Below are positions 1 through 41,115 of a stretch of DNA of 64,000 nucleotides, in pieces; within the stretch, counting starts at the first letter, position 1, and each line of letters starts with the position of its first letter. The translations under genes were made by a program, and so were the position numbers. Origin of the DNA: Candidatus Latescibacterota bacterium. Lineage in GTDB: Bacteria > Latescibacterota > UBA2968 > UBA8231. The stretch lies in contig OZ241889.1 of assembly GCA_965203355.1 (NCBI GenBank), forward strand, positions 3,648,001-3,712,000. Direction: 5' to 3'. The notes under the pieces were generated by a model. That model was not told where the DNA came from and did no database searches. It worked only from the letters and a program-made list of their open reading frames with translations.

Positions 1-3000
1 TCTCGCCCATCACCGTCGGCGTCCCGGAAATCGTCCGGGTGGCCGGGTCAAACGACAGCCCGGCCGGCAGCCCCGACACGCTATACGTCAGCGGCGGAGT
101 GCCCCCGGAGACGGCCGGCAACGTCAGGTTTGCCGGCACGTTAATGGTGAATTGAATCATGTTGTCGGTGTGCGAATCCGCCGGATTGGCTTTGCCGACT
201 CCGCCGAACGCACCGAACAACGCACCGAGGTCGACAAAATCCAGCATCGCGTTGACTGTAATCGCGAACGTCAGCGAGACGCTTTTATCGCCAGCCATCG
301 CCGTGTAGGTGACTTCAACGGCCCCATCGGTCGCCGCGTCTGGTGTGCCCGAAATCGTCCGGGTCGCCGCGTCAAACGACAGCCCGGCCGGTAGCCCCGA
401 CACGCTGTACATGATGGTTCCCTCGCCGCCCAACGCCACCGGCAGCACCAACGGCGTAATCGCCGTGCCCGCCGTGTAGGTGTGTGCGGCGACCGAAGTG
501 CCCTCGACAAAAGCCAAGGCGATCATCATGTCCTCATCGCCGTCCATCATGCCGCTGTCCATGTCGGTCAGCACCAGCGTCGCCGAATCCGAAGTCAAGC
601 CGGGCAGCATCGCGTTGAGGATGATCGTCTCGTCGCCCTCGGCCATACTGTCGGCTGTCGGATTAACCAACAGGCGGGTCGAACCCATGATCGAACCGGC
701 GGCAATGGTAATTATCGGATCGAACAAGGCCGAATAGTCCGTGTCGCGCATGGCACTGCTCGAAACCTCATCAATCGAGATGGTCGCCGTGGCGTCCTCG
801 GCCAATGGCTTGCCGTCCAGCGCGGCCATGACCATCACTTCGGTCAATTCTGCCGTCTCGGGGATCGCGCTCGGCATCACCGACAGCACCAGAGACGTGC
901 TGGCGGTCTCGTCGTCGGAAATGCGGATATCTACTTGACCCCAGCCGCCCGAAGCCGCCGCCCGGATCCCTACATACTTATGACCGGCCGCCGCAGCGTT
1001 GTCGATCGGCGACAGGAAAAGCGTCGTCCAGCCCATCGTCTCGCCGGCCGGAATGGTGACGATCCCCGCCAATGTCGCGGTGTAATCCACGTCGCGGGTG
1101 GCCATCGCGCCGCTGGCTGGCGGCACAATCGTGAAGCGGACCATCTCGGCGGCCGGAGCCGCGCCCGACAGAGTCGCCGTAACCCGGATTTCGGTCGTCT
1201 CGCCGTTTTCGCGCACGGCCGATTGCGAAGCCATCACACTCGCGACGCCAATCGTCACCGGCGCGGCTTCACCCACCGTGATGGTGAAGGTCCGTCCGCC
1301 GATGTCGCCGTCGCTATCAATCGCCGTATAGACGACCGTGGCCATGCCCGCCAGCGTCGGCGTACCCGAAAGCGTCCGGGTGGCCGCGTCAAACGACAGA
1401 CCCAGCGGCAAGGTCGCCGAAACGCTGTACATCAGCGTTCCTTGGCCGCCCATGGCCGCGGGCAAGACCTCGCTGAACGCCTGACCCACCGTCGCTTCAA
1501 AAGCCAACGCAGCATCGCCAAAGCTCGGCTGTCCCGTGTCCGCTGGCGTTTCGGACGAATCGTCCGTCATCACCGCGTCTTTCAGCGTGATCTTCGCGGT
1601 GCTGACCACGATCTTTTTGTTCTCTTGGTTCTTGAGATTGTCCGTGATCTGCTTCAGCGTGATCGTCTCGTCGTTGTCGGCTTTGCCGTCGTAGATCGGC
1701 GTAACCGTGATCGTCGTCTGGCCAACGACCTCGCCGCGCGGAATCGTCAGCGAGCTAAGCATCGCCGTGTAGTCCAGTTCCCGATCCGCCGAACCGGCCG
1801 CATCCTCATCCAAACCCAGCGCGATGGTCGCATCCGCGTCGAGCACCTTGCCGTCCAACGTGGCGGTCACCGTCACGGTCGTCGCTCCGGCGTCCTCTTT
1901 GATTTCGCCCGGGCTGACCGACAGCGTGATGTTTTTGCTCAGCGTCTCATCGTCGGTAATCGTGAACTTCGCATCCTTCATCTGCGTCGATTCCGAGCCG
2001 ACCTTCGCTTGCACCGTGAACGTCCACGGATTATTCACAGCGCTGTTGTTCGTCGGGGTGACGCGCAGCATGGCCGTGCCTTTGGTGGTGCCGGCCGGGA
2101 TCGTCAAGCCCTCGAGGATCTCCACTTCGTAATTCACGTCGCGCGTCCCCTCACCCGCCGTAATCTGAAAGTCCACCGCCTTAGAGCCGGTTAAAGCCGT
2201 CTCCAATTCAACGTTCATCGCAACGTCAGTCGCCCCGACTTCCTCGCGTATCGACTTCGGACTCAGCGTAAAATTCTTGATCCGCGCCACTGCAACATCC
2301 TCGACCGTGACGATGCCGGAGTTGATCGTAAGCGGAATGACAAAAGTGTCCACATACTTTAGCGTTCTGTGTGTGTCCGGGTCTATTGCCCGCTTCTTAA
2401 CGAAAGTATCCTCGACGTCGGAATCGCCGTTAAAGTCGATGCTAAAACCCCAATTTGTTTCCCCGATTCCGTCTTCCGAGGTCTTGATGTCCGCGCACAC
2501 TTGTAGCTTCGTGTCCGTTGCATCAAATAAGCAGAGACCTACCTCGGATAACATCTTACCCTCGGGCACCTTATACGTATCCAAATAATCGCCATCCCTG
2601 AAAAAGTCGATCCCCAAGTCGGCTTCTGCCAACACGGTCCCCGCAGGTGCGAAGTCGGAATCTTTATAATTATTAGCACCATAACCTGTAGCCCTATCGG
2701 CTTTTATCCCAACATACCCGTCACCATCGGCGTCGGTTCCAACATCCCCATCGCCGTTTAAGTCTATGCCCATTGTCTTGACGCTGTAAGTCTGGTTGTT
2801 TGTGGAGATACTGAATGGTGTATATGTGACATGCTCTGGCGCATTAGACTGCACTGGCAGCATAAAACCATCGTCCTCAAAGGTACCATCGAGATTAAGG
2901 TCGATCCGGACCCGCCGCCCCTCGCTGTTCTGCCGTTTTAACTTCACGACCAGCTTATTGTCACTGGGCTTTAGCACGATCTTGCCCGCCTTATTTTTCG

Positions 3001-3943
3001 GAGCGAGGGTGAACGTAGTCGTCGCGTCGAACTTACGCTGCGGAACGGTCAGCTTCCCCAAGCCGCTAAGCGAGTAATGCACATCGCGCGTCAACGTATC
3101 GCTGGTAGCCCCTTTGCCCTCGACAGGAGCCAGTCGGGTTTCAATGGCTTGGGTGGTTTGGGTCTTAAACGCGCGGCCATTCAACGTCCCCGTCAATTCA
3201 ATCGGAGTCGCATCCGCCTGCTTGCTGAGCTTGGACGGCGCAAAAGAAAGGTCAAGCGCACTCGGCAACTGATCATCGTCGATGATCTCCACATACATTC
3301 TCGAATACGTTCTAATAATGTGTTCTTGTACGTCAAAGCGTATAACAGGATGCTCGCCGCCAATGTATTCGGCCGAACTTTTGAAACCAATTTTATAGTT
3401 ACCCCCTTCAAACCGAAACACGACCGGGATATTAACTCCACCGTCTAAATCCTCTTTATCGCCAGGTCGCCTAAAGTTGGCCTGCCTCCTTATACTCGCA
3501 GCCATATCATTAAAAGCATTCAGACTCGCAGCCTGCCGCTCATAGTGATTGAAGACTTTTTTGGAGAAATCGCACTCGGTGGCTGTGGCTGAGCAAGGCC
3601 CGACTCGCTTATTGTTTATCGGGGTTATGGTCAGCGTTCCTGTCGTCTTTTTGTCGCCCTTCTTAACCACGAGATTGGGGGTAGATAAGGTGAAGAACTC
3701 ACCGTAATACTTTGAGTAGGGACGCTCCGCATCGAAAAGCATCCCAACGGGAATATCTTCGGTCGCCGCCGTCCCCCCCTTTGTTTCTAAGGTCACCGTA
3801 ATATCTTGTGCCCCTCCGTCCTCGCGGATCAAAACCCGGTCAAAGGAGACGAATAGGCTATCTTGGGCCGCGGCCTCCCCGGCCAACAGCAAACAAGGCA
3901 AAAAAGCCAAACGCCGCATCGCATAAATAAATGAACGTACCAT
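1..3943 (-). CDS. Large secreted Ig/Calx-beta-like repeat surface protein with putative Ig (He_PIG) domains; runs off window start; paralog of 53296..57555
   Basis: ATG at 3943 after GGGAGG RBS; signal peptide MVRSFIYAMRRLAFLPCLLLAGEAAAQ; frame open where checked by hand; LPAGLSFDAATRTISGTP repeats; strong DNA similarity to 54050-57500; absent from ORF track because no stop in window. Confidence 0.85.
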   Translation of the reverse strand, partial: MVRSFIYAMRRLAFLPCLLLAGEAAAQDSLFVSFDRVLIREDGGAQDITVTLETKGGTAATEDIPVGMLFDAERPYSKYYGEFFTLSTPNLVVKKGDKKTTGTLTITPINNKRVGPCSATATECDFSKKVFNHYERQAASLNAFNDMAASIRRQANFRRPGDKEDLDGGVNIPVVFRFEGGNYKIGFKSSAEYIGGEHPVIRFDVQEHIIRTYSRMYVEIIDDDQLPSALDLSFAPSKLSKQADATPIELTGTLNGRAFKTQTTQAIETRLAPVEGKGATSDTLTRDVHYSLSGLGKLTVPQRKFDATTTFTLAPKNKAGKIVLKPSDNKLVVKLKRQNSEGRRVRIDLNLDGTFEDDGFMLPVQSNAPEHVTYTPFSISTNNQTYSVKTMGIDLNGDGDVGTDADGDGYVGIKADRATGYGANNYKDSDFAPAGTVLAEADLGIDFFRDGDYLDTYKVPEGKMLSEVGLCLFDATDTKLQVCADIKTSEDGIGETNWGFSIDFNGDSDVEDTFVKKRAIDPDTHRTLKYVDTFVIPLTINSGIVTVEDVAVARIKNFTLSPKSIREEVGATDVAMNVELETALTGSKAVDFQITAGEGTRDVNYEVEILEGLTIPAGTTKGTAMLRVTPTNNSAVNNPWTFTVQAKVGSESTQMKDAKFTITDDETLSKNITLSVSPGEIKEDAGATTVTVTATLDGKVLDADATIALGLDEDAAGSADRELDYTAMLSSLTIPRGEVVGQTTITVTPIYDGKADNDETITLKQITDNLKNQENKKIVVSTAKITLKDAVMTDDSSETPADTGQPSFGDAALAFEATVGQAFSEVLPAAMGGQGTLMYSVSATLPLGLSFDAATRTLSGTPTLAGMATVVYTAIDSDGDIGGRTFTITVGEAAPVTIGVASVMASQSAVRENGETTEIRVTATLSGAAPAAEMVRFTIVPPASGAMATRDVDYTATLAGIVTIPAGETMGWTTLFLSPIDNAAAAGHKYVGIRAAASGGWGQVDIRISDDETASTSLVLSVMPSAIPETAELTEVMVMAALDGKPLAEDATATISIDEVSSSAMRDTDYSALFDPIITIAAGSIMGSTRLLVNPTADSMAEGDETIILNAMLPGLTSDSATLVLTDMDSGMMDGDEDMMIALAFVEGTSVAAHTYTAGTAITPLVLPVALGGEGTIMYSVSGLPAGLSFDAATRTISGTPDAATDGAVEVTYTAMAGDKSVSLTFAITVNAMLDFVDLGALFGAFGGVGKANPADSHTDNMIQFTINVPANLTLPAVSGGTPPLTYSVSGLPAGLSFDPATRTISGTPTVMGE

Positions 3944-15865: not shown

Positions 15866-16140
15866 ATGCCGTGGTCGTGCCCGTCGGCCCATTCAATGCG
15901 AATGCCGTAGCGCCCAACGTAGCTAATCCCTCGCACCTCGGCTGTGGCCGACGCGGCCTCGGGCGGCAAGAGCGTCAATCCGCCCGCATTCGCGTCGCGC
16001 AATTCCCGACAGTGAGCGCACGGACACGCGCGCCGCAAGCCCGCCAAATCGCAGCGGCTCTCGCGACCATTGCTCCACGCAATGATCAACTCGCCGGCCC
16101 GGTCATCCACGGCAATGTCCCGCGGCTTTGCCTTGTTCAA
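15823..16140 (-). CDS. DUF971 / gamma-butyrobetaine hydroxylase N-terminal-like protein
   Basis: LRRACPCAHC, VGRYGIRIEWADGHDHGIY. Confidence 0.88.
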   Translation of the reverse strand: MNKAKPRDIAVDDRAGELIIAWSNGRESRCDLAGLRRACPCAHCRELRDANAGGLTLLPPEAASATAEVRGISYVGRYGIRIEWADGHDHGIYTFEFFRALAAGG

Positions 16141-17456
16141 CGCGGCGCTCCCACCACCTTAGCACTCAGCTCGTAGGGCGCGGCCGCGGTGATCTCCACT
16201 TCGACGAAAGAACCCACCGGAGGCATGCCTTCCGAGATTACCACCTGGCCGTCGATTTCCGGGGCGTCGCGCTCCATCCGCCCATGGCACACTTCCCCTA
16301 CGTGTGCATCGATCAAGACCTGCTGCCGCGTGCCGACGAGCGCGTCGTTTTTCTCCGTGCCCACGCGCTCCTGTAGTTGCGTCAGGCGGCTGTAGCGCTC
16401 CTGCTTGATTTCTTCGCCGACCGCGTCCCCGAGCGCACACGCCGCCGTCCCATCTTCCGGTGAGTAGAGAAAGCCGGTCGCATAGTCAAAGCGCGTCTCC
16501 GCGACAAACGCGAGTAGCTCCTCAAAATCGTCCTCGGTTTCTCCGGGAAAGCCAACGATGAACGTCGAGCGCAGCCCAACCCCCGGCAACCGCGCCCGCA
16601 GCCATGCCAGCAAATCGAGCGTCTTTTGGCGCGTCGTCGCCCGCTTCATGCGCTTGAGCACCGGGTCGGCGATGTGTTGCAGCGGCATGTCGATGTACCG
16701 GCACATCTTGTCGCACGTGGCGTAGAAGTCGATCAGTTCCTCGGTCCAAAACGCCGGATACGTGTACATCAAGCGCATCCACTCAATGCCCTCGACCGCG
16801 GCGAGTGCCTGCAAAAGGCGCACGAGCTGGGGCCGGCCGTAGAGATCGGCTCCGTAGCGCACCGAGTCCTGCGAAACCAACACCAACTCCCGCACCCCCT
16901 CGGCCGCGAGCCGCTCGGCCTCGGCCACAAGCTGTTCGATGGGCTCGCTCGCGTGTCGCCCGCGAATGGCCGGGATGGCGCAAAAGGCGCATTGGTGATC
17001 GCAGCCGTCCGATATGCGTAGATACGCCCAGTGCTTGGGCGTCAGCGAAGTCCGCGGCAAGCCAGCCCAGTACTGGGGCCGCTGGACGCCCAACACATCG
17101 TCGACGTGGCGGACGATGGCGGCTTCGTCGGCGATCGTCAGCAGCTTGTCGGCTTCCACCAACTCCTGCGCCAACTCTTCGTAGTAGCGCGTCGCTAGAC
17201 ACCCGGTGACAATCAACCCCTCGCACGGCCCTTCTTGCTTGAGCCGATGCGCGTCCATAATCGCGGCCAGGGATTCTTCTTTGGCTGACTCGATAAAGCC
17301 GCAGGTATTGACCACCACCACGTCCGCTTCTTCTGGCACGTCCGTTAGCTGATAGGCGTGGCCCTGCAAAAGCCCCAGCATCCGCTCGGAATCGACCGTG
17401 TTTTTCGGACACCCCAAGCTGACTAGGTGTACTTTGTGGGGCTGGTTTTCGCTCAT
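16137..17456 (-). CDS. rimO: Ribosomal protein S12 methylthiotransferase
   Basis: SLGCPKNTVDSE, NTCGFIESAKEES, radical SAM CDHQCAFC, DAPEIDG, TRAM tail. Confidence 0.95.
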   Translation of the reverse strand: MSENQPHKVHLVSLGCPKNTVDSERMLGLLQGHAYQLTDVPEEADVVVVNTCGFIESAKEESLAAIMDAHRLKQEGPCEGLIVTGCLATRYYEELAQELVEADKLLTIADEAAIVRHVDDVLGVQRPQYWAGLPRTSLTPKHWAYLRISDGCDHQCAFCAIPAIRGRHASEPIEQLVAEAERLAAEGVRELVLVSQDSVRYGADLYGRPQLVRLLQALAAVEGIEWMRLMYTYPAFWTEELIDFYATCDKMCRYIDMPLQHIADPVLKRMKRATTRQKTLDLLAWLRARLPGVGLRSTFIVGFPGETEDDFEELLAFVAETRFDYATGFLYSPEDGTAACALGDAVGEEIKQERYSRLTQLQERVGTEKNDALVGTRQQVLIDAHVGEVCHGRMERDAPEIDGQVVISEGMPPVGSFVEVEITAAAPYELSAKVVGAPR

Positions 17457-17477: not shown

Positions 17478-20270
17478 TTAAAGTTGACCACCATGACGAA
17501 TCAACAACTCTGCCGTTTCACTAGCTCCTTTTTCTTTTGCATAATGGAGCGGCTTATGGCCGCCAAAAAAACCAGTGCTGTCTTCTGCGTTGACATTTGC
17601 GCCCTGTTTCAGGAGGAATTCAGCCGTCTCGTACGCATTCTCCAACGCCGCAAAATGAAGCGGGGTAACGCCATTTTCGGTCTTGGCGTGGACGTCGGCA
17701 CCGTTTTGGAGCAACACGGCAGCTACCTCCCGAGCATTTGCCGACGCCGCAGCACACAGCGGGGTATAGCCATATTTGGCATTGGCGTCGACGTAGGCAC
17801 CGTTTTGGAGCAACACGGCAGCCGTCTCGTGCGCATTCTCTAACGCCGCAGTATGAAGAGGGGTATAGCCATCTTTGTCCCTGGCGTGGACGTCGGCACC
17901 GTTTTGGAGCAACACGGCAGCTACCTCCCGAGCATTTGCCGACGCCGCAGCATGAAGCGGGGTAACGAGCGGAGTAACGCCATCTTCAGTACTGGCGTGG
18001 ACATCTACGCCCCGTTTCAAGAGGAATTCAACCGTCTCCCGCGCATTTGCCGACGCCGCAGTATGAAGCGGGGTATAGCCATCTTTGTCCCTGGCGTGGA
18101 CGTCGGCACCGTTTTGGAGCAACACGGCAACCGTCTCCCGCGCATTCGCCAACGCCGCAGCATGAAGCGGGGTAACGCCATCTTCAGGCTTGGCGTGGAT
18201 GTCGGTGCCCCGTTTCAGGAGGAATTCAGCCATCTCCCGCGCATTTGCCGACGCCGCAGCATGAAGCGGGGTATAGCCATTTTCGGCCTTGGCGTGGACG
18301 TCGGCACCACTTTGGAGCAAAACAGTAGCCGTCTCTCTCGCATTCTCCAACGCTGCAAAATGAAGCGGGGTAACGCCATATTCGGACTTGGCGTAAACGT
18401 CGGCACCACTTTGGAGCAAAACGGCAACCGTCTCCCGCGCATTCACCAACGCTGCAAAATGAAGCGGGGTATCGCCATATTCGGACTTGGCGTGGACGTC
18501 GGCACCACTTTGGAGCAACACGGCAGCCGTCTCCCGCGCATTCAACGCCGCAGCATGAAGCGGGGTAACGCCATCTTTGCCCTTGGCGTGAACGTCGGCA
18601 CCGTTTTGGAGCAACACGGCAGCCATCTCCCGCGCATTCGCCAACGCCGCAGCATGAAGCGGGGTATCGCCATCTTTGTCCTTGGCGTGGACGTCGGCAC
18701 CGTTTTGGAGCAACACAACAGCCGTCTCGTGCGCATTCGCAAACGCCGCAACATGAAGCGGGGTACAATCTTTTAGCTCACGATCATCCTCTCCCATTTT
18801 ATCGAGAATTGTCGTAAGGTGCGGCGAGATACTGGCGTGTAGTGTGGCCTTCGCGTCAATGTCGGAATTCTGGTCCAGCAGGGATTGAGCGAGTGCAGGC
18901 AGATTCAGACACGCAGCGTGATGTAGGTCGGTCACGCCTTTATTGTATATGATATCTGGAGATGGCTTGCGACCCACCTTCGCAACAAACTCTCTTTCCT
19001 CGCTCTCTTCTGCCGCTTCCCGCACCGTTGGTTCCGACTTTGCAAAATTCAGCGACTGGAAAATTTCATCTATTGCGCTGAGCATCTTTTGCCGGATCTG
19101 TACCATCTGTTTCTTGATGGGCGCGAAATCTCTCTTTTGCGAGTCTATGAGCTTGCTGATTTTTTCTCCTAAAACGTCCGCATCGTCTGGTTTTAGCTCA
19201 GAAAGATGAAAGTCGATATCTTTGAGTTCGTTTGTCATCCACTTGGCCGTTCTTTCGTCTTTGAGAATGGCATTCACATACATCTCAAAGACGCCCTCAA
19301 TCTCCTGCTTCAAGTCTGTGTTCGCTTGTTTGGGCTGGTTTTGCTCTCGGAAAAAGTCCGCCAACGACATCTCGTCATATGAGAATTCCTCACGGCGGCG
19401 AGAACTATACGCGCTGATTCCAAGAGGCTCGAAATCCACGTCGGCAAGCGTATTCTTCACCTCGTTCAGTATGTCCTCCAATTCACTGAGGTGCTTGATG
19501 TCCGCCTTGTTCAGAACTACGTAAAACGGTAAAGACCTCAATTCCAAACCCTCCAGAAACTCCAAATCTTCATCGGGGACCGTACCAGCAGAATCCAGCC
19601 CAATCATCCAGATGAGCGCATCCCGATCTTTGAGAAAATCAGCCGCCGTAGTCCGGTCTTCACTGCGTCCTCCCGGATTGTAGCCCGGCGTATCAATCAA
19701 GCAGATGTTGTCAAACAAGCTGTCGCGCAAAGGAACCTCCACTGTAATGGAGGGCATGATGTACTTGAGATCGAAGGGAAAGGTGTCGATGAAACTGTGG
19801 GATAGTTGCGAATATAGTGCCGGGTCGATATCCACCGTATTGCCGGTGCGGGAAAAACCCTTGATCGCCATCTCCGAATTGGCAATAACAAAAGAAGGAA
19901 TGGCCGTGGCCGGTTGGACTCGCTCCGGCAGCAAATGATCATATCCCTCGATAAAACTGTTGACAAACGCCGACTTGCCACTGCTGAATCCACCACCAAT
20001 GGCAATGGATCGCTTGGCGGAAAGATGAGGAAAGACTACCAGTTCTTTCAACCGATTGGCCAGTCTTTCCAAACGCTGCACCGCGGCCGCTTCCTCGGCT
20101 AACGACGACTCCGCATCGGCAAATTCCCGAAACTCTCCGTTCAAGAGGTCCTCAAACTTCTTGAACTCTACGTGTTCATTGGATTTAGCCGTCAGCAGGT
20201 CGGAAACTAACTTGTATTTCTTCTGCAAATCCTCATACTCTAAACGCAACCCACTTTCATCCATGATCAA
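17478..20270 (-). CDS. Dynamin-like GTPase fused to ~14 C-terminal ankyrin repeats
   Basis: GGGFSSGKS, PATAIP, DTPG, NKAD; coiled coil; TPLHxAA..LL..GAD repeats. Confidence 0.9.
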   Translation of the reverse strand: MIMDESGLRLEYEDLQKKYKLVSDLLTAKSNEHVEFKKFEDLLNGEFREFADAESSLAEEAAAVQRLERLANRLKELVVFPHLSAKRSIAIGGGFSSGKSAFVNSFIEGYDHLLPERVQPATAIPSFVIANSEMAIKGFSRTGNTVDIDPALYSQLSHSFIDTFPFDLKYIMPSITVEVPLRDSLFDNICLIDTPGYNPGGRSEDRTTAADFLKDRDALIWMIGLDSAGTVPDEDLEFLEGLELRSLPFYVVLNKADIKHLSELEDILNEVKNTLADVDFEPLGISAYSSRRREEFSYDEMSLADFFREQNQPKQANTDLKQEIEGVFEMYVNAILKDERTAKWMTNELKDIDFHLSELKPDDADVLGEKISKLIDSQKRDFAPIKKQMVQIRQKMLSAIDEIFQSLNFAKSEPTVREAAEESEEREFVAKVGRKPSPDIIYNKGVTDLHHAACLNLPALAQSLLDQNSDIDAKATLHASISPHLTTILDKMGEDDRELKDCTPLHVAAFANAHETAVVLLQNGADVHAKDKDGDTPLHAAALANAREMAAVLLQNGADVHAKGKDGVTPLHAAALNARETAAVLLQSGADVHAKSEYGDTPLHFAALVNARETVAVLLQSGADVYAKSEYGVTPLHFAALENARETATVLLQSGADVHAKAENGYTPLHAAASANAREMAEFLLKRGTDIHAKPEDGVTPLHAAALANARETVAVLLQNGADVHARDKDGYTPLHTAASANARETVEFLLKRGVDVHASTEDGVTPLVTPLHAAASANAREVAAVLLQNGADVHARDKDGYTPLHTAALENAHETAAVLLQNGAYVDANAKYGYTPLCAAASANAREVAAVLLQNGADVHAKTENGVTPLHFAALENAYETAEFLLKQGANVNAEDSTGFFGGHKPLHYAKEKGASETAELLIRHGGQL
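17580..18770 (-). repeat. Tandem ~99-bp ankyrin-coding repeats (about 12 highly similar units)
   Basis: Recurring atgaagcgggg..gacgtcggcacc..ttggagcaa units. Confidence 0.92.
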
Positions 20271-22319
20271 TCCCTTTCAATTCTTCCCTAATGCGGGCGA
20301 TTCGACCCAACTCCATTGTCTTGTTCTTAATGGAGCCCTCGAGAGAGGCGAGGTCCTTGTTGAACTTTTCCAGCAGCCGATCAGCTAACCGAACTCCATA
20401 CATCGCCTTGGTGAGATCATCAATGTACCCCCTCACTTTCTTGCGAAGCTCTCTACAAGAATCCTTAGAATAGCTGCATGCCTCATTAAAAAATGAGGTC
20501 GCCTCCTCACCTTTCAATACACCCCGAGGCGTCAGATCTTTGGGCAATTGGATATTATATTTGAATGGTGGAATGGATATGGAATTAACGGCATTTTTTA
20601 TAATCTCTCGAACTCTCCATGCTTCTACATCCTCATCACCCAATTCTTGCCGTAAAATTTTAGTTAGTTCTTTGTTGAGTTCATTCCGCCACAGGTCCAT
20701 TTGGGCTTCTGTTTTCTCTACAATATCCTCTACCATTTTTTCAACAGACTCCGTCAATATCCCAACGACAGCATTCGTGCGGATGGTCTCAACAGATCTC
20801 GTCTTATTCTCCTTAAATATGATACCTGTTTGAAAATTTTCATATATTTCGCTTTTCTCTTCAGCGATACCCTCTCGTACCGACCGATCTCGACTTTCTA
20901 GCTCCTTGTTAAGTTCACGTCTCAGGTTTTCTTTAACCTGTTTAACCGATTCTTCATGCGCCTCGCCAATTAGAGAAGCCGTCTTTTCCAAGGATTCGAT
21001 CAAACTGTCACGCCGCTTCTTAAAACCCTCAATTTCTATACTCTCAATTTGGGTATGCCGCTCATTCGCATACTTGAGTAAGTCGTTTTTCAACTTGTGT
21101 AGAGACTGGAGTTTTGCGCCGCTGTACTCTGTTTGTCTGTCCTTGATGATGATGTCCTTTTTTTCGCGCACACCAGCGACGATTTCCCGAATGTACGCTA
21201 TGTTGGACAGCTTCTCCAGATTGATACACGATAATTCCGCATCTTCAGCGGAGAAATAGTTTCGATACTCAAACAACAAATTGTCCCAAACATGCTGCAT
21301 TCCCTCATCCCACGCATCTTTTTTATCAAAGCTCTGCTTCAGGCTTTCGCAAATGCCCGCAGAGTGAATGATTCTACCTTGCTGAAGTAACTGATCATAG
21401 GTATTGCCCACTTCGGGATTGCGCTCCTTCAAATCCTCAATAATCATCTCCAAATGCCTTCCGAGCACATCCGTAGTGAGGCGGTCCAATACGCGGTCCA
21501 AGTCCCCGTTGCTTTCATCCTTCAAATTGCCATAAAGCTGCGTATCGACTTGCGACGCTATCACGTATAGCTCCCGGATGCTTTCCTGCCCAGTAATGCG
21601 ATCCATCAAATTCAAATCTGCCGAACTCATAAACTGACCGGCCGGACTGACGATCAACACCACATCGCATTGACTCAAATGCTGTCGGGTTCGCGCCTCA
21701 CGCGACTTTACCGGATCGTTAATACCGGGCGTATCCACAATTTCTATATCCCGCAGATTCTCTTGCGGTAGCCAAATGTTGACACTTTTGGTAACGGGCA
21801 TGTAACGGCCGGTCGCGCCGACGTAATCATCCAATTGGCGACGCAAATCGGCAAGATCGGAAAACTTGAGAACGGTCTTTTTCTCGATCTCGCTGAGGTC
21901 GAGCCCAGACTTTTCGATTTTATCGTATTGTTCATAGGCGGCAACCAAGGCGTCGTTGCCATCCTTCATCGCCCGTTTCACCCTACTGCTCGCCCGCTCT
22001 TCTGGGGACCTGCGCGAGCGTATCTCTTCTGCTTGTTCCTCGGCTAAAAAGTCTTTATAAAGCCGATCTGCTCGTGTCTTATATGCCCTGTACTGGTTCT
22101 GGATATGTCTCAAGTCCTCTTGGGTAAAAAACTCTACTTCTGCCGATAGACTCTCCCCGTAAGAAAGCGTCGTCAAGGCCGCTGTCATGGGAGTTGCCGC
22201 CTTGGGCAGAATGCTTTCCCCTGCAAAGAGCAGGGCGTTTAGCAGCGAGGATTTTCCAGATTTGACCCGTCCCACAATACCGATCCTGAGTAGGCGGTTT
22301 TCATCTTCAATAGCCGTTA

Positions 22320-23247
22320 GAAGCGTTTTTAAAATTCATTTTTTTTAGCGATTCGCTTGAGTATCAAATGGATCATCGCGATTTGGATAAAGGCTTCACT
22401 ATTGCAAGTTAGGTGCTCGTAGTCTTTGGCATGGACTCGATAGTTGAGTAGCCAAGCAAACGTTCGTTCGACGACCCAACGACGAGGGAGCACCTCAAAG
22501 CCGGAGCCTTGTCTGGATACGACTTCAAGGTCTATTTTGTGCGTTTTTTTTTTGAGCCACCCATTGCCTAAGCGGCGCGCCTTTATAGGCTCCATCCACC
22601 CACAGCTTGCGTAACCTTTGTACCGTGGGTGAAAAGTAGGTTTTCAACAAGGTCTTCAAGCCGTCGGCATCCGAGGTCGAAGCAGCGGTCACCACACACT
22701 CAATCAGACGACCCTCGGTGTCGACCAACAGATGGCGTTTGCGTCCTTTAACCTTCTTGCCGGCATCGTATCCAACACTTTTACCTTGGGTGGCCGTGGT
22801 AACGCTCTGCGCGTCCACGATCCCCGCCGACGGGGTCGGTGCCCGGCCGTGCTGGATGCGATCCTGCCTGGTTAGGGCGTCGAGTATCTGTGGCCAAACC
22901 CCTTGTTGACGCCAGCGATTGAAGTAGCCATACACCGTTTGCCAAGGCCCAAAACACCGCGGCAGCATCGGCCAAGGACACCCGGTTTTAGCCCGATACA
23001 GTAGACCATTCATCACCAAACGCACCGCCCGAGGTGGCCGACCCGGACCCCCTTGACGCCAACGGCCCCGAGGCAGCAGACGAGCAAGTAACAGCCATTG
23101 TGCATCGGTCAAATCCGTCGCATATTCTACACCGGGCGTACCCATATATAACCCCCCTTTCAGGCTTTGTGATGAAACCTAAAGGTCGGTTCATGGGTAC
23201 GTCCTTTCAAGGGAAAATCAACTAAAAGTGAATTTTAAAAAGGCTTC
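22320..23247 (-). mobile_element. IS5-family (IS1031-like) insertion sequence, 928 bp, TTA target duplication
   Basis: Terminal IRs GAAGCGTTTTTAAAATTCA / TGAATTTTAAAAAGGCTTC; TTA at 22317-22319 and 23248-23250. Confidence 0.93.
22329..23145 (-). CDS. IS5-family DDE transposase, frameshifted at an A10 run (22544-22553)
   Basis: [34 protein letters not shown], then [12 protein letters not shown] in the other frame. Confidence 0.88.
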
Positions 23248-23470
23248 TTAGGTTTGCTTGCAATTCCTTCGCCGCCGGGATGCCGTGTTCTTGGGCGAGG
23301 TTTGCCGCCTCATCGCCGAGAAAATCGCCATAGCGATCTATGACCTGATCTAGATTGTCTCTGTATGCGACGATACCACGAGCTTGCATGGCGTTGTCTC
23401 CCTTTGGGTCAAGTAGGTTAAAGTTTTAGAGAGAACGGCGATTTAGTAAAATCTGCTAAATCAATCCTCG

Positions 23471-25198
23471 TCAGACTCTTGCAGAGCGCGTAAAGATTGT
23501 CTCGCTTGCCAGCGAGCGGATAGTTTCCCTAACGCCCGTGAGTTGGTCAATGGTTTGCTCAATATCTCGCTGCGCGTCCTTTTTGATTTGCTCAGCAGCG
23601 ACGATTTCATCGCGCTTTGACTTAATGTGCAAATCAATGGCCCCGGCTTGCTCGTTAATCAAGACTCTCACCTGCTCCTCGAAATACCCGGGCAGTTCGC
23701 TTGCCAGCCTATTTTTAACTTCTGGAATAATCCGCCCAACTAGGTCCTCACGCAGCTTCCTCTTTGCTCTCTCTTTTTGCAGAAGGGCAATGAGTTCTGG
23801 TAAGAATACAATGACAACTTCCACTGCCACTGCCACCACGTTAGTAGTAATGGCAAGCAGGACGGTAAGACCCCGCATTTTTCGCATCCCATTTATTATT
23901 TTACCCATAGCTCCCGAAAGCGTTTTGGTCGCCAACGGACCAAACATAGAAGAGTTTACAAATCTATCCATGCCTGTTTCGTCGCCTACATAGGACGACA
24001 AAGTACGCGCAGTACTCTCAATATGATCGCTTAGTTCTTTGACAATCTCGGCGTTCAAGTCGATAAGTTTGGCTTTTACGTGACGCAAAACTGAGGAGCG
24101 GACGATTTCCCCCATCTGTTGCTGTACAGCATCTGTTCCCTCCTGTGAGATGGCCGTGTTGACCAACGCATCTACCTGAGCACTCAAGTCGCCGCCCACC
24201 TTATCCACAATAGAGCGGACGGAGTTTGTGGAATACTTCGCACGAATATCCTGAACTAGCTGATCCTTTTTCCGCTCTAACTCCCTCAGTCCCTCAGCAA
24301 GCTGGTCTATGGCCTCCTGATTCTCGCTTTCGCTCCTTCTCAGCGAGCTAATCCAAGTGTTCAAGCTGGCGTCGAGCGCGTAGAAATCGCCCTCCAAGCG
24401 AGGCCGCCAAAGCCGATCAAAAAGAGCCTCTGGATCAATGGCCTTGAGCATCTTGCCCAGTGCCGCCCCGCCCTCTTTGCCCACCGACACGACCGAATCG
24501 GCAAAATCAAAATCGTCCTTCAGTCGCTCCTCGACATTCTGCACAATGGTCTCTACCTCCGAAGCCGAGCGCAAATTCGCCTTGCTCACAAATACGGAAA
24601 ACCCCTTGTCAAACTCGTGAAATTCAGCCAACTGCCGCAGGGTCGATTGGGTGACGGTCCCTTCCTCCACGCTGATCAGGACCGCGTAATGACTCCCGCG
24701 GGCAAGATATGTCAAAATGGCTTGGTGATGTAAGTCCAGCGGCGAGTCAAATCCGGGCATATCCACGAGCACCAGCGGCAGCACTCCTTGCAATTGGGAA
24801 CGGTCGAGAAAGCCCTTTACATATTTATACTGGCGCGCCTTCCCTTTGATCTCGCGGATGTCGCGGATGTCGTAGCGATCCGTCTCCTCATTGGCCTTAA
24901 CCGCCGAAATGTACTCCTCGTGGGAATAGCGCAACTCGGTCGCCAACGCAGTCTCCGGCGTGGTGTTCACCGGCAACAAATCCTGCTCCAAAAAGGAGTT
25001 GATCAACGTGCTCTTACCGGCACTAAACGCGCCGACCACCGGAACGATCAATTCCGCCGCCCGAATCTCCTGCTCCAACTCCTCTACGGAGCGGACATTC
25101 TGTTCCCATTCTTCAGCAAATCCCGAAGATTGGACCTTGTTTAGTTCGGCCTGTACTTCGCCTAAATAGTTGCAAAACGCCTGCTGCGTATTAAGCAT
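23471..25198 (-). CDS. Dynamin-like GTPase (first gene of trio)
   Basis: VVGAFSAGKSTLIN, TPETALATELRYS, DMPGFDSP, hydrophobic paddle-like segment near C-terminus. Confidence 0.9.
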   Translation of the reverse strand: MLNTQQAFCNYLGEVQAELNKVQSSGFAEEWEQNVRSVEELEQEIRAAELIVPVVGAFSAGKSTLINSFLEQDLLPVNTTPETALATELRYSHEEYISAVKANEETDRYDIRDIREIKGKARQYKYVKGFLDRSQLQGVLPLVLVDMPGFDSPLDLHHQAILTYLARGSHYAVLISVEEGTVTQSTLRQLAEFHEFDKGFSVFVSKANLRSASEVETIVQNVEERLKDDFDFADSVVSVGKEGGAALGKMLKAIDPEALFDRLWRPRLEGDFYALDASLNTWISSLRRSESENQEAIDQLAEGLRELERKKDQLVQDIRAKYSTNSVRSIVDKVGGDLSAQVDALVNTAISQEGTDAVQQQMGEIVRSSVLRHVKAKLIDLNAEIVKELSDHIESTARTLSSYVGDETGMDRFVNSSMFGPLATKTLSGAMGKIINGMRKMRGLTVLLAITTNVVAVAVEVVIVFLPELIALLQKERAKRKLREDLVGRIIPEVKNRLASELPGYFEEQVRVLINEQAGAIDLHIKSKRDEIVAAEQIKKDAQRDIEQTIDQLTGVRETIRSLASETIFTRSARV

Positions 25199-25257
25199 AA
25201 TAGCTTTCTCCACAATGTTTGAGTAACACCAGAATAATAGGTGATAAAGTCGTCCCT

Positions 25258-26370
25258 TCAAGCGAGGTTGCGCCCGGAGCACTGCTGCACATACTCAATG
25301 GCCGCGCACACGGTCGCATCGCTTATGCCCTCCACGACCTCCACCGCCCCAATCCGCCGCCCCAGCACAAACCGCAGCCGCCCTTCCACCCGCTTCTTGT
25401 CGGCCTTGGCACAGGCCAAAATCCGCTCGGCCTCCACCTCGGCCAGCCCCCCGGGCACCCCCAACCGCTCCAGCAACGCATCCTGCCGCTGCCGTTCCGC
25501 TTCGGGCCAAAACCCCTCGCGGCAGGCGATTTCGCCCGCGGCGATCAAGCCCAAAATTATCGCTTCCCCGTGTCGGTAGCGGCCGTAGTCCGTGGCGGCT
25601 TCAATCGCGTGCCCAATGGTGTGCCCGTAATTGAGAATCGCCCGCAAGCCCTGCTCCTTCTCGTCGGCGGCCACTACTTCGGCCTTGATCTCGACATTGC
25701 GGCCAATGAGCCAGTCCAAAGTCTCTGGCGCCAACGCCATATCCACGACCTCCTCCAAGTGTTCTTCCAAAAAGGCGAACAGCGCGGCGTCGCGAATCAG
25801 CCCGTGTTTGACCACCTCGGCCAGGCCCGCAACCCGCTCGCGCCGCGGCAGCGAGTGCAGTGCGTTGGTGTCGGCCAAAACCAAGCGCGGCTGGTGAAAG
25901 GTGCCGATCAGGTTTTTGCCCAGCGCGTGGTTGACCCCGGTCTTGCCGCCAATACTCGAATCAACCTGCGCGACGATGGTAGTAGGTACCTGCACGTAGG
26001 GCACGCCGCGCAAATAAGTGGAAGCCACAAAGCCCGCCACGTCGCCGACCACGCCCCCGCCGAGGGCCGCGACCCAAGCCCCACGGTCGAACTCGGCCTC
26101 GATCAGCTGCGTGAAAATGCCCTCGGCCCCGAGCAAGTTCTTAGCCTCCTCGCCCCCAGCACAGACGATCTCTAACACCTCAAACCCAGCCGCACGCAAG
26201 CTCTCCCCGGCTGGTTGCAGGTAGTGCGCCGCTACGATCTCGTCGGACACCAAGGCAACCTGCCGACCCAAGGCCAAATCGCGGCAGCGCAGCCCCAATT
26301 CCCCTAAAATATCGTGGCCGACGAAAATGGGATATGCAGCCCCCGGGATGGCTAAGTCAATCCTTGGCAT
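25258..26370 (-). CDS. aroB: 3-dehydroquinate synthase
   Basis: LGGGVVGD, DSSIGGKTG, KNLIG.FHQP, LNYGHT.GHA. Confidence 0.95.
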   Translation of the reverse strand: MPRIDLAIPGAAYPIFVGHDILGELGLRCRDLALGRQVALVSDEIVAAHYLQPAGESLRAAGFEVLEIVCAGGEEAKNLLGAEGIFTQLIEAEFDRGAWVAALGGGVVGDVAGFVASTYLRGVPYVQVPTTIVAQVDSSIGGKTGVNHALGKNLIGTFHQPRLVLADTNALHSLPRRERVAGLAEVVKHGLIRDAALFAFLEEHLEEVVDMALAPETLDWLIGRNVEIKAEVVAADEKEQGLRAILNYGHTIGHAIEAATDYGRYRHGEAIILGLIAAGEIACREGFWPEAERQRQDALLERLGVPGGLAEVEAERILACAKADKKRVEGRLRFVLGRRIGAVEVVEGISDATVCAAIEYVQQCSGRNLA

Positions 26371-37949: not shown

Positions 37950-40900
37950 TCAGCGAATCAACGCCAGCTTGGCCGTTTGAACCGCCTCGTCGGTTTGCAA
38001 CACAGCCCAATACACGCCAGAAGCCGCCGCCGCGCCCGCGGCCGTGCGACCATCCCAACGCACCCGGTGCGTCCCCGCCTCCAGCCAGCCAGCGGCCAAG
38101 GTGCGAATGGATTGTCCCAGCAGATTATAGACAGCAAGCCGCACCACACCGGCCTCGGCCAGCGCAAAGGGAATGGTCACGGCCGCGTTGAACGGCGAGG
38201 GAAACGGATCGCCCAGACCCAAAAGCCGCGCCCCGGCCACGCGCTTAGCCGCACTGGTTGGTGGCTCCCCCACATTCACATTCTGCAACTGCCAGTGCTC
38301 GAAAGAGGCGGCGCGATCTTGATTGGTGATATGGCGGAACTCGATAATGTTGGCGCCGGTGCGTAAGTATGATGGGGCCAAGACGAGATACCAAGACGTC
38401 CAATCCGCGCTCGCTGGAACCGGATTGTAAGACCGTCCATTGATAAAAATGACGACTTCATTGTCGCTTATGTCCTTTGCCGTAAAATAACACGCGACAC
38501 TGGAATGGGTTTGCTCATCAAAATCAAAACCGAATTTGACGCTTCTGGGATTTTTGGTAACGGCCGGCGGGCTGTATCCGAACAGCCCTCGGCTCGGCAG
38601 CGACTCCACCGCTTCGCCTTCAACAATAATGCGCTTCGCCCCGGAAGCCTGAGACCCTGTAACAACGACCTTCACGTCGCCGCTTCGCGCTCCGATTGGG
38701 ACCCTAACCACGATGCGGCTATCGCTCCAAGTCACGTAATCGCCGGGCACGGGCCGGACATTGGGCGTAAAGCGGACGTAACCGCTCCCCCGCGACGAGC
38801 CGAAATTGGCCCCGGTCAGGGTCAGGCGGTCTCCGGGTTTGACTCGGCTCGGAGCAACGCGGCCCAAGTAGGGGCTTGTTATCTCCAAGCGAATAGCGTT
38901 GCTGGTTCCGGCCGAAGTGCGGACGGCGACATTTCCAGAGCGCATGTTGGCGGGAACGCGAAACCGGATGCGGGTATTAGACCAAGCGATATACGAAGAA
39001 GAAGGAAGCGCGACCGAACCAATACGAACCGAACTACGCCCCCGCAACGAGCCGAAATTGCGCCCGCTGACGGTCACGCCTTGACCGGACTGCGCCCGAC
39101 GCGGGGAGAGGCTGATAATCCGAGGAGAAGCACTCGTTATCTCCAAGCGAATGGCGTTGCTGGTTCCGGCCGAGGTGCGGACGGCCACATGACCTGAACG
39201 CATGTTGGCGGGAACGCGGAACCGGATGCGGGTATTAGACCAAGCGATATACGAAGAAGAAGGAAGCGCGACCGAACCAATACGAACCGAACTACGCCCC
39301 CGCAACGAGCCGAAATTACTACCGCTGACGGTCACGCCTTGACCTGACTGCGCCCGACGCGGAGAAAGGCTGATAATCCGAGGAAAAGCACTAGCGGTTC
39401 TAGTAGTGCTATCGGCAGCTCGCATAATCGGCAGCACGAGTTTGCCGTAGCCGCTGTCGTTGTCCCGGCCCCGAGTTCCTATGTCAACCGTTGCCGCAAC
39501 AAGCGCGTTCCACAGTTGAGCACGCGAGTACGATGGGTTCGCCGACTTGATCAGGGCCGCCGCGCCAGCCACGTGGGGAGCCGCCGCGGAAGTCCCGCTA
39601 AAACCATAATATCCCATCGGCTTTCCATAAGAAACCGTCGATACTCCACTCGGCGCGACGAGTTCGGGCTTGAAGCGGCCATCGGTAGTGGGACCTCGGG
39701 AACTGTAATCTGCAATCCGACCTAGATTGTAGTAGTCATACTGGACCGCCCCGACGGCCATGGCTCCTCGGGCGTCCGCCGGGGTCGAGATACTGTTCTT
39801 AGCGACCGCATACTTTTCAAGATTGTGATTATATGACCATATTTTTAGCCTTCTAGGTAGGGCATCTTGGTTGCGAATAGCAATGTTATAGCGCCCCGCT
39901 TCTTGCGCTTCATATTCGATAATTTCTACGGGAAACCACCGGGAATTATCTTGAACATCGGTACTTCTGGCGGCTAGTTCTAAATCGCCAGCGGAGTTTG
40001 TAAAATAGAGATACAAGTCGTAGTTCTGAGCGGTGGTGGGCCAATCATTCCAAGTCAAGTAAACGTCTATCTCATCCCCTTTCTCGGCTTCAAAGCTCAA
40101 CACCGCATCTTCGCCGCCAAAGTTGTGCCAACGGTCCTCGTCGCGATCAGACCAGAATCCATCGTAATGGCTCTGGGCGTAATTGCCCGCTGAATTTACC
40201 CAGAGAATGCCCTTGTTGGCCGCGTCATTTACAATATCGCAGGCCAGCCCTCGCCCATCGCCAAAGCCGGTTGCATTGAGAGTTCCAGAGTGGCTTATCA
40301 CATCAATGCCGTCTCGTATGGCACGGTCCTTGGCGTTCTCAAGATCAACCGAATCCCCCACCTTATAGAAGTAGAGTTCGGCTTCCGGGGCCACATCGTG
40401 GATAATCTCGGCACAAGCGGTGCCGTGGACACTATCGCCAGCGTATATTCCCTCACCCGTAAAGTCGAAGTACCGCCAACGCGCTGGCATGTCTCCAGAC
40501 AGTTGTTTAGCCCCCTTAAATCCATCGTCAATAATCGCCACCTTGACCCCTTGGCCTCGCACACCTCTGAAGTAATTATCATGCGCTTTGATGAGCCGCC
40601 GCCCTTCGCTGAACGTCGCTTGAGAATGCGGCCGATGCGGCCGGCGGACAAAGCGAACCTCCGGTAGCTCGGAAACCGCCAGCAGCGCCGCCGCCGGAAC
40701 CGAAACCCGCATCAGACTCTTAGACTGGGCCAGCACCCGCCCGCCCAGCGCCGCCAGCGACGACGTATCAATCGAAGCCGACCCTTGGCCAAGATGCGGA
40801 ACCAAGATGACGACGACCGGGTCCGGCAAATCGCCAACCGATTTCGCCGCTCGGGGTGCGGCCAACTCCCACAACGCGCTCTGTATCTTGGCCGGGCCGT

Positions 40901-40997
40901 CGGGCTTGTCCGGTGTGAAGTCCAGATTTTGTCCCCAAAGGGATATGTAGCTAAGGACGCCCAAGAAAAGGGCGGTCGCGATTCTATCAGCGATCAT
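37950..40997 (-). CDS. Secreted S8 subtilase with IPT/TIG repeats and FlgD-Ig-like C-terminal domain
   Basis: VAIIDDG, HGTACA, NSAGN, GTSAAAPHVAG; G.NFG IPT repeats; PFPSPFN..VYNLLGQ..WDG. Confidence 0.9.
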   Translation of the reverse strand: MIADRIATALFLGVLSYISLWGQNLDFTPDKPDGPAKIQSALWELAAPRAAKSVGDLPDPVVVILVPHLGQGSASIDTSSLAALGGRVLAQSKSLMRVSVPAAALLAVSELPEVRFVRRPHRPHSQATFSEGRRLIKAHDNYFRGVRGQGVKVAIIDDGFKGAKQLSGDMPARWRYFDFTGEGIYAGDSVHGTACAEIIHDVAPEAELYFYKVGDSVDLENAKDRAIRDGIDVISHSGTLNATGFGDGRGLACDIVNDAANKGILWVNSAGNYAQSHYDGFWSDRDEDRWHNFGGEDAVLSFEAEKGDEIDVYLTWNDWPTTAQNYDLYLYFTNSAGDLELAARSTDVQDNSRWFPVEIIEYEAQEAGRYNIAIRNQDALPRRLKIWSYNHNLEKYAVAKNSISTPADARGAMAVGAVQYDYYNLGRIADYSSRGPTTDGRFKPELVAPSGVSTVSYGKPMGYYGFSGTSAAAPHVAGAAALIKSANPSYSRAQLWNALVAATVDIGTRGRDNDSGYGKLVLPIMRAADSTTRTASAFPRIISLSPRRAQSGQGVTVSGSNFGSLRGRSSVRIGSVALPSSSYIAWSNTRIRFRVPANMRSGHVAVRTSAGTSNAIRLEITSASPRIISLSPRRAQSGQGVTVSGRNFGSLRGRSSVRIGSVALPSSSYIAWSNTRIRFRVPANMRSGNVAVRTSAGTSNAIRLEITSPYLGRVAPSRVKPGDRLTLTGANFGSSRGSGYVRFTPNVRPVPGDYVTWSDSRIVVRVPIGARSGDVKVVVTGSQASGAKRIIVEGEAVESLPSRGLFGYSPPAVTKNPRSVKFGFDFDEQTHSSVACYFTAKDISDNEVVIFINGRSYNPVPASADWTSWYLVLAPSYLRTGANIIEFRHITNQDRAASFEHWQLQNVNVGEPPTSAAKRVAGARLLGLGDPFPSPFNAAVTIPFALAEAGVVRLAVYNLLGQSIRTLAAGWLEAGTHRVRWDGRTAAGAAAASGVYWAVLQTDEAVQTAKLALIR
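38878..39385 (-). repeat. Near-identical tandem duplication (~255 bp) of one IPT/TIG domain
   Basis: PRIISLSPRRAQSGQ..TSNAIRLEITS occurs twice. Confidence 0.9.
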
Positions 40998-41115
40998 ATT
41001 GATTTCACCATTGCTCCACATTATACGGCGGGTTGAACATCGGCGGCGGCTTATAATACGCCGGTCAAAACGAGACAGCAACGAAACTTGCGGCGGACGC
41101 TAGCGAAAACTCGGC

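Follow-up and report, generated by a model that had tools for sequence, protein, structure and literature searches.

What do three consecutive dynamin-like GTPase genes do in a bacterium when the last of them ends in a long array of ankyrin repeats? The question arises from a locus on contig OZ241889.1 of the Candidatus Latescibacterota assembly GCA_965203355.1, of which we analyzed positions 3,648,001 to 3,712,000. This stretch of 64,000 nucleotides is referred to below as the window, and coordinates are counted from its first letter. Dynamins of bacteria have mostly been described as pairs, and what they do is poorly defined. An initial annotation of the window had noted three co-oriented P-loop genes of dynamin type, here named A, B and C, in a low-GC block between aroB and rimO, and all three are present where it had placed them. 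Our analysis indicates that they belong to a three-dynamin family that is large and conserved, that has apparently not been described before, and whose third subunit is modular.

The three proteins match the Pfam Dynamin_N domain with bit scores of 69.0 (A), 73.3 (B) and 30.3 (C), relative to a cut-off of 27. The P-loop and G3 motifs that had already been read from the translations are GAFSAGKS and DMPG in A, GRVKSGKS and DTPG in B, and GGFSSGKS and DTPG in C. P-loop and DxPG are invariant across the homolog alignments, which hold 55, 56 and 64 sequences. The G4 motif is the canonical NKAD in C and takes the variant forms SKAN in A and SQVD in B. The open reading frame (ORF) of A reaches back to a GTG at 25282; most homologs begin 28 residues further in, at the ATG at 25198. 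One correction concerns B: its ORF that starts at the P-loop (20257..22275) is only the 3′ part of a gene interrupted by an insertion sequence (IS).

The fusion of a dynamin to ankyrin repeats in C is not an assembly chimera, a concern raised at the outset. The junction between core and array is spanned by independent contigs (X1 record 6, X3 record 14 and X4 record 17), and the same fusion is present in many other assemblies: ankyrin repeats occur in 63 of the 120 relatives that match the C core best. Contigs from two samples of one study match the block without differences. Coverage extends over 18687..22345 in X1 and X3 and over 18687..19153 in X4, which comes from a third study's run. The array occupies approximately residues 446-930, shows a DNA tandem period of 99 nt in 11.5 copies, and matches Pfam Ank_2 with 378.4 bits and Ank with 291.9 bits in 12 stretches. 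The initial annotation had counted about 14 repeats after the helical region, in agreement with the cap and repeats listed in Table 1; this repeat number is taken from the assembly, because short-read contigs break within the array (17711-18687) and yield only short collapsed pieces there. Legionella Ank effectors and MzaA were considered as identities for C and rejected, since these NCBIfam matches reflect generic ankyrin similarity far below the cut-offs. A second dynamin-ankyrin paralog (P0088) is located on the same contig as the window.

A profile of the C core was used to scan one genome per species, which confirmed 235 relatives, and 80 loci were kept. At least 4.3 kb of sequence upstream of C is available in 68 of these loci, the 12 shorter ones being left uncounted. 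In 62 of the 68, genes A, B and C follow one another in this order on a single strand, with A of at least 500 and B of at least 650 amino acids as judged by tblastn, so the dynamin module supposed in the initial annotation is real. The exceptions are L002, which lacks A, and L038, L043, L045, L058 and L059, which have truncated members. Intergenic gaps in the trio cluster at −4 to +15 nt. The nearest loci are found in metagenome-assembled genomes of Candidatus Latescibacterota. One of them, L001, has the same aroK-aroB-A-B-C-rimO order. Its amino acid identity to the window is 80-91% in A, B and the C core and 91-95% in rimO and aroB.

The trio is distributed far beyond this phylum. Hosts include Latescibacterota, Pseudomonas, Neisseria, Burkholderia and Thiothrix; Campylobacter, Helicobacter, Arcobacter and Sulfurovum (Campylobacterota); Treponema and other spirochaetes (Spirochaetota); Fibrobacter (Fibrobacterota); and Fusobacteriaceae, Phycisphaerae and Desulfobacteraceae. 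Plasmid-borne copies are found in Calditerrivibrio, Pseudomonas aeruginosa and Escherichia coli. Among 1.84 billion proteins, a profile of B matches 8549 representatives at E≤1e-3; the number falls to 2527 at E≤1e-10 and to 1116 at E≤1e-30. B-type proteins therefore form at least 1116 clusters at 50% identity, and the best 150 are nearly all full length. No match to B was detected in a phage collection. Related genomes hold one or two trios, with different tails on C.

Some loci depart from the simple three-gene arrangement and show flexible copy number inside the operon. Two A genes stand in tandem in L006 (4037-7601), two C-type genes are present in each of L058, L064 and L071, and the C gene of L057 (9830-12487) runs on into a second GTPase-like region. 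Unusually long gaps separate A from B in L003 (4022-6789) and in L024 and L040 (∼940 nt each), which suggests further insertions inside the operon in other genomes. A divergent trio, with proteins of 563, 724 and 405 amino acids, is carried by E. coli IncF plasmids (L083:5096-12684, NZ_CP148279.1); it occurs in 5 of 5426 complete E. coli genomes and is plasmid-borne every time. Its 405-amino acid gene encodes a C-type core (31% identity over 281 residues, E 1e-35), and downstream, with an 8-nt overlap, lies a gene for an 829-amino acid “CFI-box-CTERM” protein with no Pfam match. In this plasmid trio the variable part may be a separate gene.

The most distinctive property of the family is the exchangeable tail of C, in keeping with the variable C-terminal domain proposed in the initial annotation. 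Precomputed Pfam assignments for the best 120 relatives give 63 ankyrin tails (three of which also have FGE-sulfatase), 20 tails of the HhH type and 37 with neither. A Pfam scan of ten C homologs found two or three HHH_3 domains in three, Ank in two, FGE-sulfatase in one, MORN_2 repeats in one, a second GTPase-like part in one and no domain in the remaining two. Many Pseudomonas copies of C carry instead an N-terminal coiled coil of 240-350 residues. One HhH-type homolog (P0035, 877 amino acids) continues for ∼70 residues beyond its HhH domain, and by eye this end looks like a helix-turn-helix tail of the antitoxin type.

Tails have been exchanged repeatedly. On a FastTree tree of 117 C cores (three of the 120 were removed for short matches, and the tree carries no branch support values), the three tail states require at least 13 changes, compared with 47 on average and never fewer than 41 when the states were shuffled 200 times. 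Ankyrin and HhH clades alternate on this tree, and the ankyrin clade of the window is sister to an HhH group. Among 33 close relatives with ankyrin tails, the C core is 76-91% identical and total length ranges from 572 to 983 amino acids, so that the number of repeats differs even between near relatives. Between the window and L001, the C core is 86% identical, with a nonsynonymous divergence (dN) of 0.070 and a ratio of nonsynonymous to synonymous divergence (dN/dS) of 0.17. The ankyrin part is 65% identical, with a dN of 0.257 and a dN/dS of 0.51, values that misaligned repeats may inflate. For comparison, dN/dS is 0.29 for A, 0.32 for B, 0.12 for aroB and 0.16 for rimO. Variation from repeat to repeat is found at positions 1-3, 5, 10, 13, 14, 26 and 33 on a constant framework, and these positions presumably overlap those randomized in designed ankyrin binders.

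Profile matches and structural models point to a different architecture for each of the three dynamin-like proteins (DLPs). The best Protein Data Bank (PDB) profile matches of A are Nostoc BDLP (5e-18) and Cj-DLP2 (7e-14), and A alone has a hydrophobic stretch (residues 441-475, 35 residues, KD19 hydropathy maximum of 2.6). From its sequence, A is most simply viewed as a full-length DLP with a predicted hydrophobic membrane paddle or hairpin. No hydrophobic segment was detected by the same measure in B or C (KD19 maxima of 1.15 and 1.07), and hydropathy reveals no hydrophobic leader or signal peptide in C. The nearest PDB profile match of B is Cj-DLP1 (1.3e-20). An AlphaFold2 (AF2) model of the intact B ortholog from L001 (pLDDT of 85.9) has the form of a full-length DLP whose G domain contains a helical insert and whose long trunk ends in a β-hairpin, and its nearest folds by Foldseek are SynDLP, BDLP, Cj-DLP1 and IniA. 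B thus appears, as modeled, to be a longer soluble DLP distinguished by its G-domain helical insert.

The nearest PDB profile match of C is Cj-DLP2 (1e-10). The AF2 model of the C core (pLDDT of 88.3, pTM of 0.79) consists of three N-terminal helices, a G domain and a C-terminal helical bundle, and its top folds are the truncated mitofusin-1 structures 5yew and 5gom (E 1e-12). The models of B and of the C core match BDLP, IniA, SynDLP, Cj-DLP and mitofusin at a Foldseek probability of 1.00. The model suggests that C is a minimal dynamin that lacks trunk and paddle, with its tail emerging where those elements would lie. A complex prediction for A (575 amino acids) with residues 1-420 of C gave a score of 0.00 and a mark of 0.32, and is not decisive. 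It is from operon structure only that we infer hetero-oligomerization of A, B and C.

Gene B of the window is interrupted after codon 47 by an IS5-family element. The first 47 codons (23389..23249) match residues 1-47 of the intact L001 ortholog, a protein of 733 amino acids that reads through the insertion point. The element has imperfect terminal inverted repeats and is bounded by TAA target duplications at 22317-22319 and 23248-23250. Two ORFs (22525..23145 and 22329..22595), overlapping at an A-run, encode its transposase and contain DUF4096 and DDE_Tnp_1 domains, with a transpos_IS5_3 score of 184.6 bits (cut-off 110). Contig depth over the IS is 465, or ∼7-8 times the 57-68 on either side, and at both borders there are loose ends whose flanks differ, with several other insertion sites. 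Because of this depth and these loose ends, the IS is a multi-copy element in the source genome or population, with ∼7-8 copies as judged by depth. In L002, the locus that lacks A, a 206-amino acid ORF upstream of B resembles the IS transposase ORF by size alone.

Since the IS splits B, the trio is probably inactive at present in this genome. We consider it fairly probable that the locus is a decaying relic here, devoid of current function. Contigs from two samples enter the IS for 24-27 nt from either part of B, with no IS-skipping contig reported, and the missing A of L002 and the truncated members of the other exceptional loci fit this reading. On the other hand, A and C are intact, and B contains no stop codon or frameshift apart from the IS and retains its dN/dS of 0.32 relative to L001, which implies that the insertion is recent. 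The contigs also leave room for an IS-free subpopulation, which they cannot exclude.

Composition sets the block apart from its surroundings. Its GC content is 0.44-0.54 relative to 0.60-0.67 in the flanks, and GC at third codon positions is 0.53-0.61 relative to 0.75-0.80, a contrast that L001 shares. The best explanation, which we offer tentatively and rate slightly below even, is that this compositionally foreign block was acquired horizontally and is one copy of a widespread three-gene operon.

Outside Latescibacterota, the neighborhood of the trio hints at a function. The ORF directly upstream of A encodes a WYL-WCX protein in 8 of 10 ORFs tested, and a same-strand WYL ORF is located within 2.5 kb in 17 of 62 loci by a local hidden Markov model search; in several more loci such an ORF lies elsewhere. 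ORFs of at least 150 amino acids within 5 kb of the trio were compared with PADLOC at E≤1e-10 for 31 of 34 picked loci (L006, L007 and L077 were left out). Among 103 such ORFs from 16 loci, the matches were WYL (12), IetA (2), mad3 (2) and one each of PglZ, BrxL, JukA, SspH and PDC-S54, together with TnpB-like matches. Another 112 ORFs from 15 loci gave WYL (6), type I methylase (2) and one each of a type I restriction enzyme, a specificity subunit, ZacA, ZacC, GajB, RT_VI, RT-SbcB, a type II methylase and PDC-S40. On a P. aeruginosa plasmid (NZ_CP133095.1; L081:919-13115), genes for a DEAD-helicase, an EH-signature protein and a WYL protein precede the three dynamin genes, and the trio is flanked by IS elements and integrases. 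The EH-signature protein and helicase are a Zorya-like pair by annotation. Genes of BREX, type I restriction-modification and Gabija systems are also among the neighbors of the trio outside Latescibacterota.

Because of these WYL regulators and defense-gene neighbors, and because of the precedent of Eleos, we propose a role in defense. Our reading is that the trio is an operon with C as its targeting subunit and that it may act, at the level of the family, against phages or mobile DNA; we hold this reading tentatively, as a leading idea that falls a little short of probable. A, B and C would join by their G domains and necks to form, at the inner membrane, a machine driven by GTP. Within it, C would be the targeting or sensor subunit, and its tail would bind a specific macromolecule, a protein in the case of ankyrin repeats and DNA in the case of HhH domains. 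Given the family context, the machine might defend the cell from phages or from mobile DNA of other kinds, in analogy with Eleos or DynA. A bolder formulation, which we regard as possible though rather doubtful, is that the trio constitutes a new and widespread anti-phage or anti-plasmid family in which an exchangeable, mitofusin-like mini-dynamin serves as the sensor and links the recognition of an invader molecule to a membrane effector formed by two dynamins. The ligands would be proteins for ankyrin tails, DNA for HhH tails and others for FGE-sulfatase and MORN tails, and the sensor of Latescibacterota would be a fast-evolving ankyrin array of varying length, a natural counterpart of designed ankyrin binders.

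Several observations weigh against a role in defense. By the same-strand 2.5-kb criterion, a WYL ORF is absent from 45 of 62 loci, and none is found in the Latescibacterota loci. The neighbor counts given above have no background control, and their matches cannot be assigned to individual loci. The Pfam scan recognized no defense family at the window's own locus, which lies between aroB and rimO in synteny with L001. Nor was a recognized defense family found among the ten nearest neighbors in Latescibacterota loci L003-L007. Apart from one AAA_22 ATPase and one protein with no match, these ten are of metabolic or housekeeping type: oxidoreductases, an amidohydrolase, a lactate/malate dehydrogenase, a signal peptidase, proteasomal ATPases, a BNR protein and a beta-lactamase-fold protein. 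No PADLOC system model is matched by A, B or C, except weakly LeoA and LeoBC by the C-terminal half of A. The loci were gathered through C, and the survey therefore covers A-B pairs only where C is present. Bacterial DLPs also have roles other than defense. The phage sensor proposed in the initial annotation thus has circumstantial support from WYL regulators and defense neighbors outside Latescibacterota, but none from the window's locus or its Latescibacterota relatives.

The main rival is general membrane maintenance or remodeling, such as fusion, repair, vesicle formation or stress protection, with the tail of C serving only to localize the complex to a protein partner, the nucleoid or a lipid patch. 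The closest solved relatives of the trio (Nostoc BDLP, Cj-DLP1/2, IniA, SynDLP and mitofusin) are tethering or fission DLPs, A has its predicted membrane paddle, and LeoABC was first tied to vesicle release, according to PMC4159319. Purifying selection on A, B and the C core, and synteny between housekeeping flanks in two species, would also suit such a role. However, a maintenance function accords poorly with patchy phyletic spread, carriage on plasmids, foreign codon composition and the presence of one or two copies per genome with different tails. The rapid exchange of the tail domain, along with WYL regulators and many defense neighbors outside Latescibacterota, likewise speaks against it. 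We consider this rival unlikely on balance, though it deserves serious weight.

Ankyrin repeats are enriched in symbionts, and for the ankyrin proteins of sponge and amoeba symbionts an action on host proteins has been proposed. A symbiosis factor, in which the ankyrin array acts on eukaryotic host proteins while the dynamins assist in its packaging or delivery, in vesicles for instance, would fit the length of the array, the leucine-rich-repeat (LRR) protein in the same window and the concentration of ankyrin fusions in one phylum of uncultured bacteria, but this idea is very improbable, and the host-interaction adaptor of the initial annotation is not supported, given that C has no signal peptide, hydrophobic leader or hydrophobic segment, that the same position holds DNA-binding HhH, FGE-sulfatase or MORN domains or nothing in sister clades and free-living genera, and that the trio is common without ankyrin in Pseudomonas, Neisseria, Campylobacter and others.

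Table 1. Features of the three-dynamin locus and its flanks, in window coordinates.
Feature	Position	Strand	Description
Gene A	23471-25198	minus	dynamin-like GTPase, 575 aa from ATG at 25198
Gene B, whole	20257-23389	minus	dynamin-like GTPase, split by IS
Gene B, 5′ fragment	23249..23389	minus	codons 1-47, MQARG...QANL; frame then enters IS
Gene B, 3′ part	20257..22319	minus	restarts at codon 47/48, LTAIEDENRLL...; GRVKSGKS, DTPG, long trunk
IS5-family element	22320..23247	minus	∼928 bp, between the two pieces of B
Gene C, whole	17478-20264	minus	928 aa; ORF 17478..20270
Gene C, core	18950..20264	minus	N-terminal helices, G domain, neck helical bundle, then acidic linker
Gene C, ankyrin array	17478..18949	minus	N-cap and 13 TPLH repeats of 33 aa
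aroB (flank)	25258..26370	minus	3-dehydroquinate synthase (Pfam scan)
rimO type (flank)	16137..17456	minus	radical-SAM methylthiotransferase, UPF0004/radical-SAM/TRAM (Pfam scan)
Promoter-like site	25234..25261	minus	TTGAAG-16-TATTAT, 36 nt upstream of A start; weak consensus match

Promoter-like sites of the kind listed in Table 1 are not more frequent than chance (10 found, compared with 6.0 ± 3.0 expected by shuffling), and terminator-like sites likewise do not exceed the shuffled expectation. A plus-strand ORF of 307 amino acids (17853..18776) was rejected as a gene and is an antisense shadow of the ankyrin repeats.

Elsewhere in the window, a second eukaryote-like repeat protein is encoded at 46601-47734, an LRR protein of 377 amino acids with internal DNA repeats. 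Two tandem paralogous S8 subtilases (1043 and 993 amino acids) with TIG and C-terminal FlgD_ig domains are located at 37950-44097. Large paralogous genes at 2-3943 and 53296-57555, 53.8 kb apart, are 76-91% identical in pieces at the DNA level; the complete one encodes 1419 amino acids with He_PIG and FlgD_ig domains.

The family is of interest for several reasons. In many phyla the familiar dynamin pair is replaced by a conserved three-gene version. Its third subunit, apparently reduced to a G domain with a neck and fitted with various binding domains, offers a model of how a dynamin machine might be aimed. As a candidate defense system, the trio would be related to animal immunity of the Mx and GBP type. 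The ankyrin arrays are natural libraries whose ligands could reveal what is sensed, and the family is open to experiment through the copies carried by E. coli IncF plasmids and by environmental Pseudomonas.

Among the papers listed, our search found no published description of a three-dynamin operon with a variable third subunit (supplementary tables lay outside the search). Two candidates were set aside: the operon of PMC12922286 consists of a dynamin, RdcB and a phospholipase and is different from the trio, and a paper on an H. pylori island that uses the wording “three dynamin-like” does not describe this trio. By structure, the C core resembles minimal mitofusin (MFN1 G domain with HB1; 5YEW, 5GOM), with an E value of 1e-12 and TM scores of 0.38-0.44, in that both combine a G domain with one helical bundle built from N- and C-terminal helices. 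In contrast to C, the eukaryotic mitofusins possess a second bundle as well as transmembrane segments, and sequence identity is 13-17%. Ankyrin proteins of symbionts and designed ankyrin repeat proteins (DARPins) share with C the 33-residue TPLH repeat and variation in the β-turn and first-helix positions. Unlike these scaffolds, the array in C is fused to a GTPase and has no secretion signal.

Among bacterial dynamins, the operon-paired DLP1 and DLP2 of Campylobacter jejuni (PDB 5OWV/5OXF; PMC6104087) resemble B and A in size, with 732 and 614 amino acids compared with 733 and 575. However, the homology is distant and mostly confined to the G domain, and the trio has a third gene. Gene order presumably differs as well. 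Campylobacter loci L052, L056 and L057 carry the trio itself. DynA of Bacillus subtilis is a membrane-binding DLP with two G domains that contributes to phage defense (PMC12998192); it is a single fused, two-headed core-gene protein that, in contrast to the trio, has no variable binding domain.

A dynamin defense system already described is Eleos, an operon whose P-loops are needed against jumbo phages (Millman et al. 2022 preprint). According to that preprint and to PMC4159319, Eleos comprises two DLP equivalents, LeoA and LeoBC, the latter also occurring split as LeoC and LeoB; in enterotoxigenic E. coli (ETEC), one DLP is split into LeoC, which has a membrane anchor, and LeoB (Michie et al. 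2014). Like LeoABC, the trio is an operon of several P-loop dynamin-like GTPases, and in many genomes it is found in the company of defense islands. Its similarity to the Leo proteins themselves is slight. Only the C-terminal half of A matches the PADLOC models for LeoA (43.6 bits, 5e-12) and LeoBC (39.2 bits, 1e-10), and B and C match no Leo model at E≤0.01. The NCBIfam model DLP_LeoA_gen scores 20.8 bits (cut-off 325), the LeoA structure 4AUR is not matched by profiles of A, B or C at E≤0.01, and LeoA ranks 42nd by fold for B in Foldseek. The trio is also organized differently, with three complete G domains in three genes that each have their own P-loop and DxxG motif, and with a B protein that lacks the membrane anchor of LeoC. 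Eleos, for its part, has no equivalent of a third, minimal DLP with a swappable tail. The trio therefore falls outside the described Eleos/LeoABC models, in line with the initial annotation, which did not recognize the fusion as a characterized system: in its working it is akin to a dynamin operon, yet it does not belong to Eleos.

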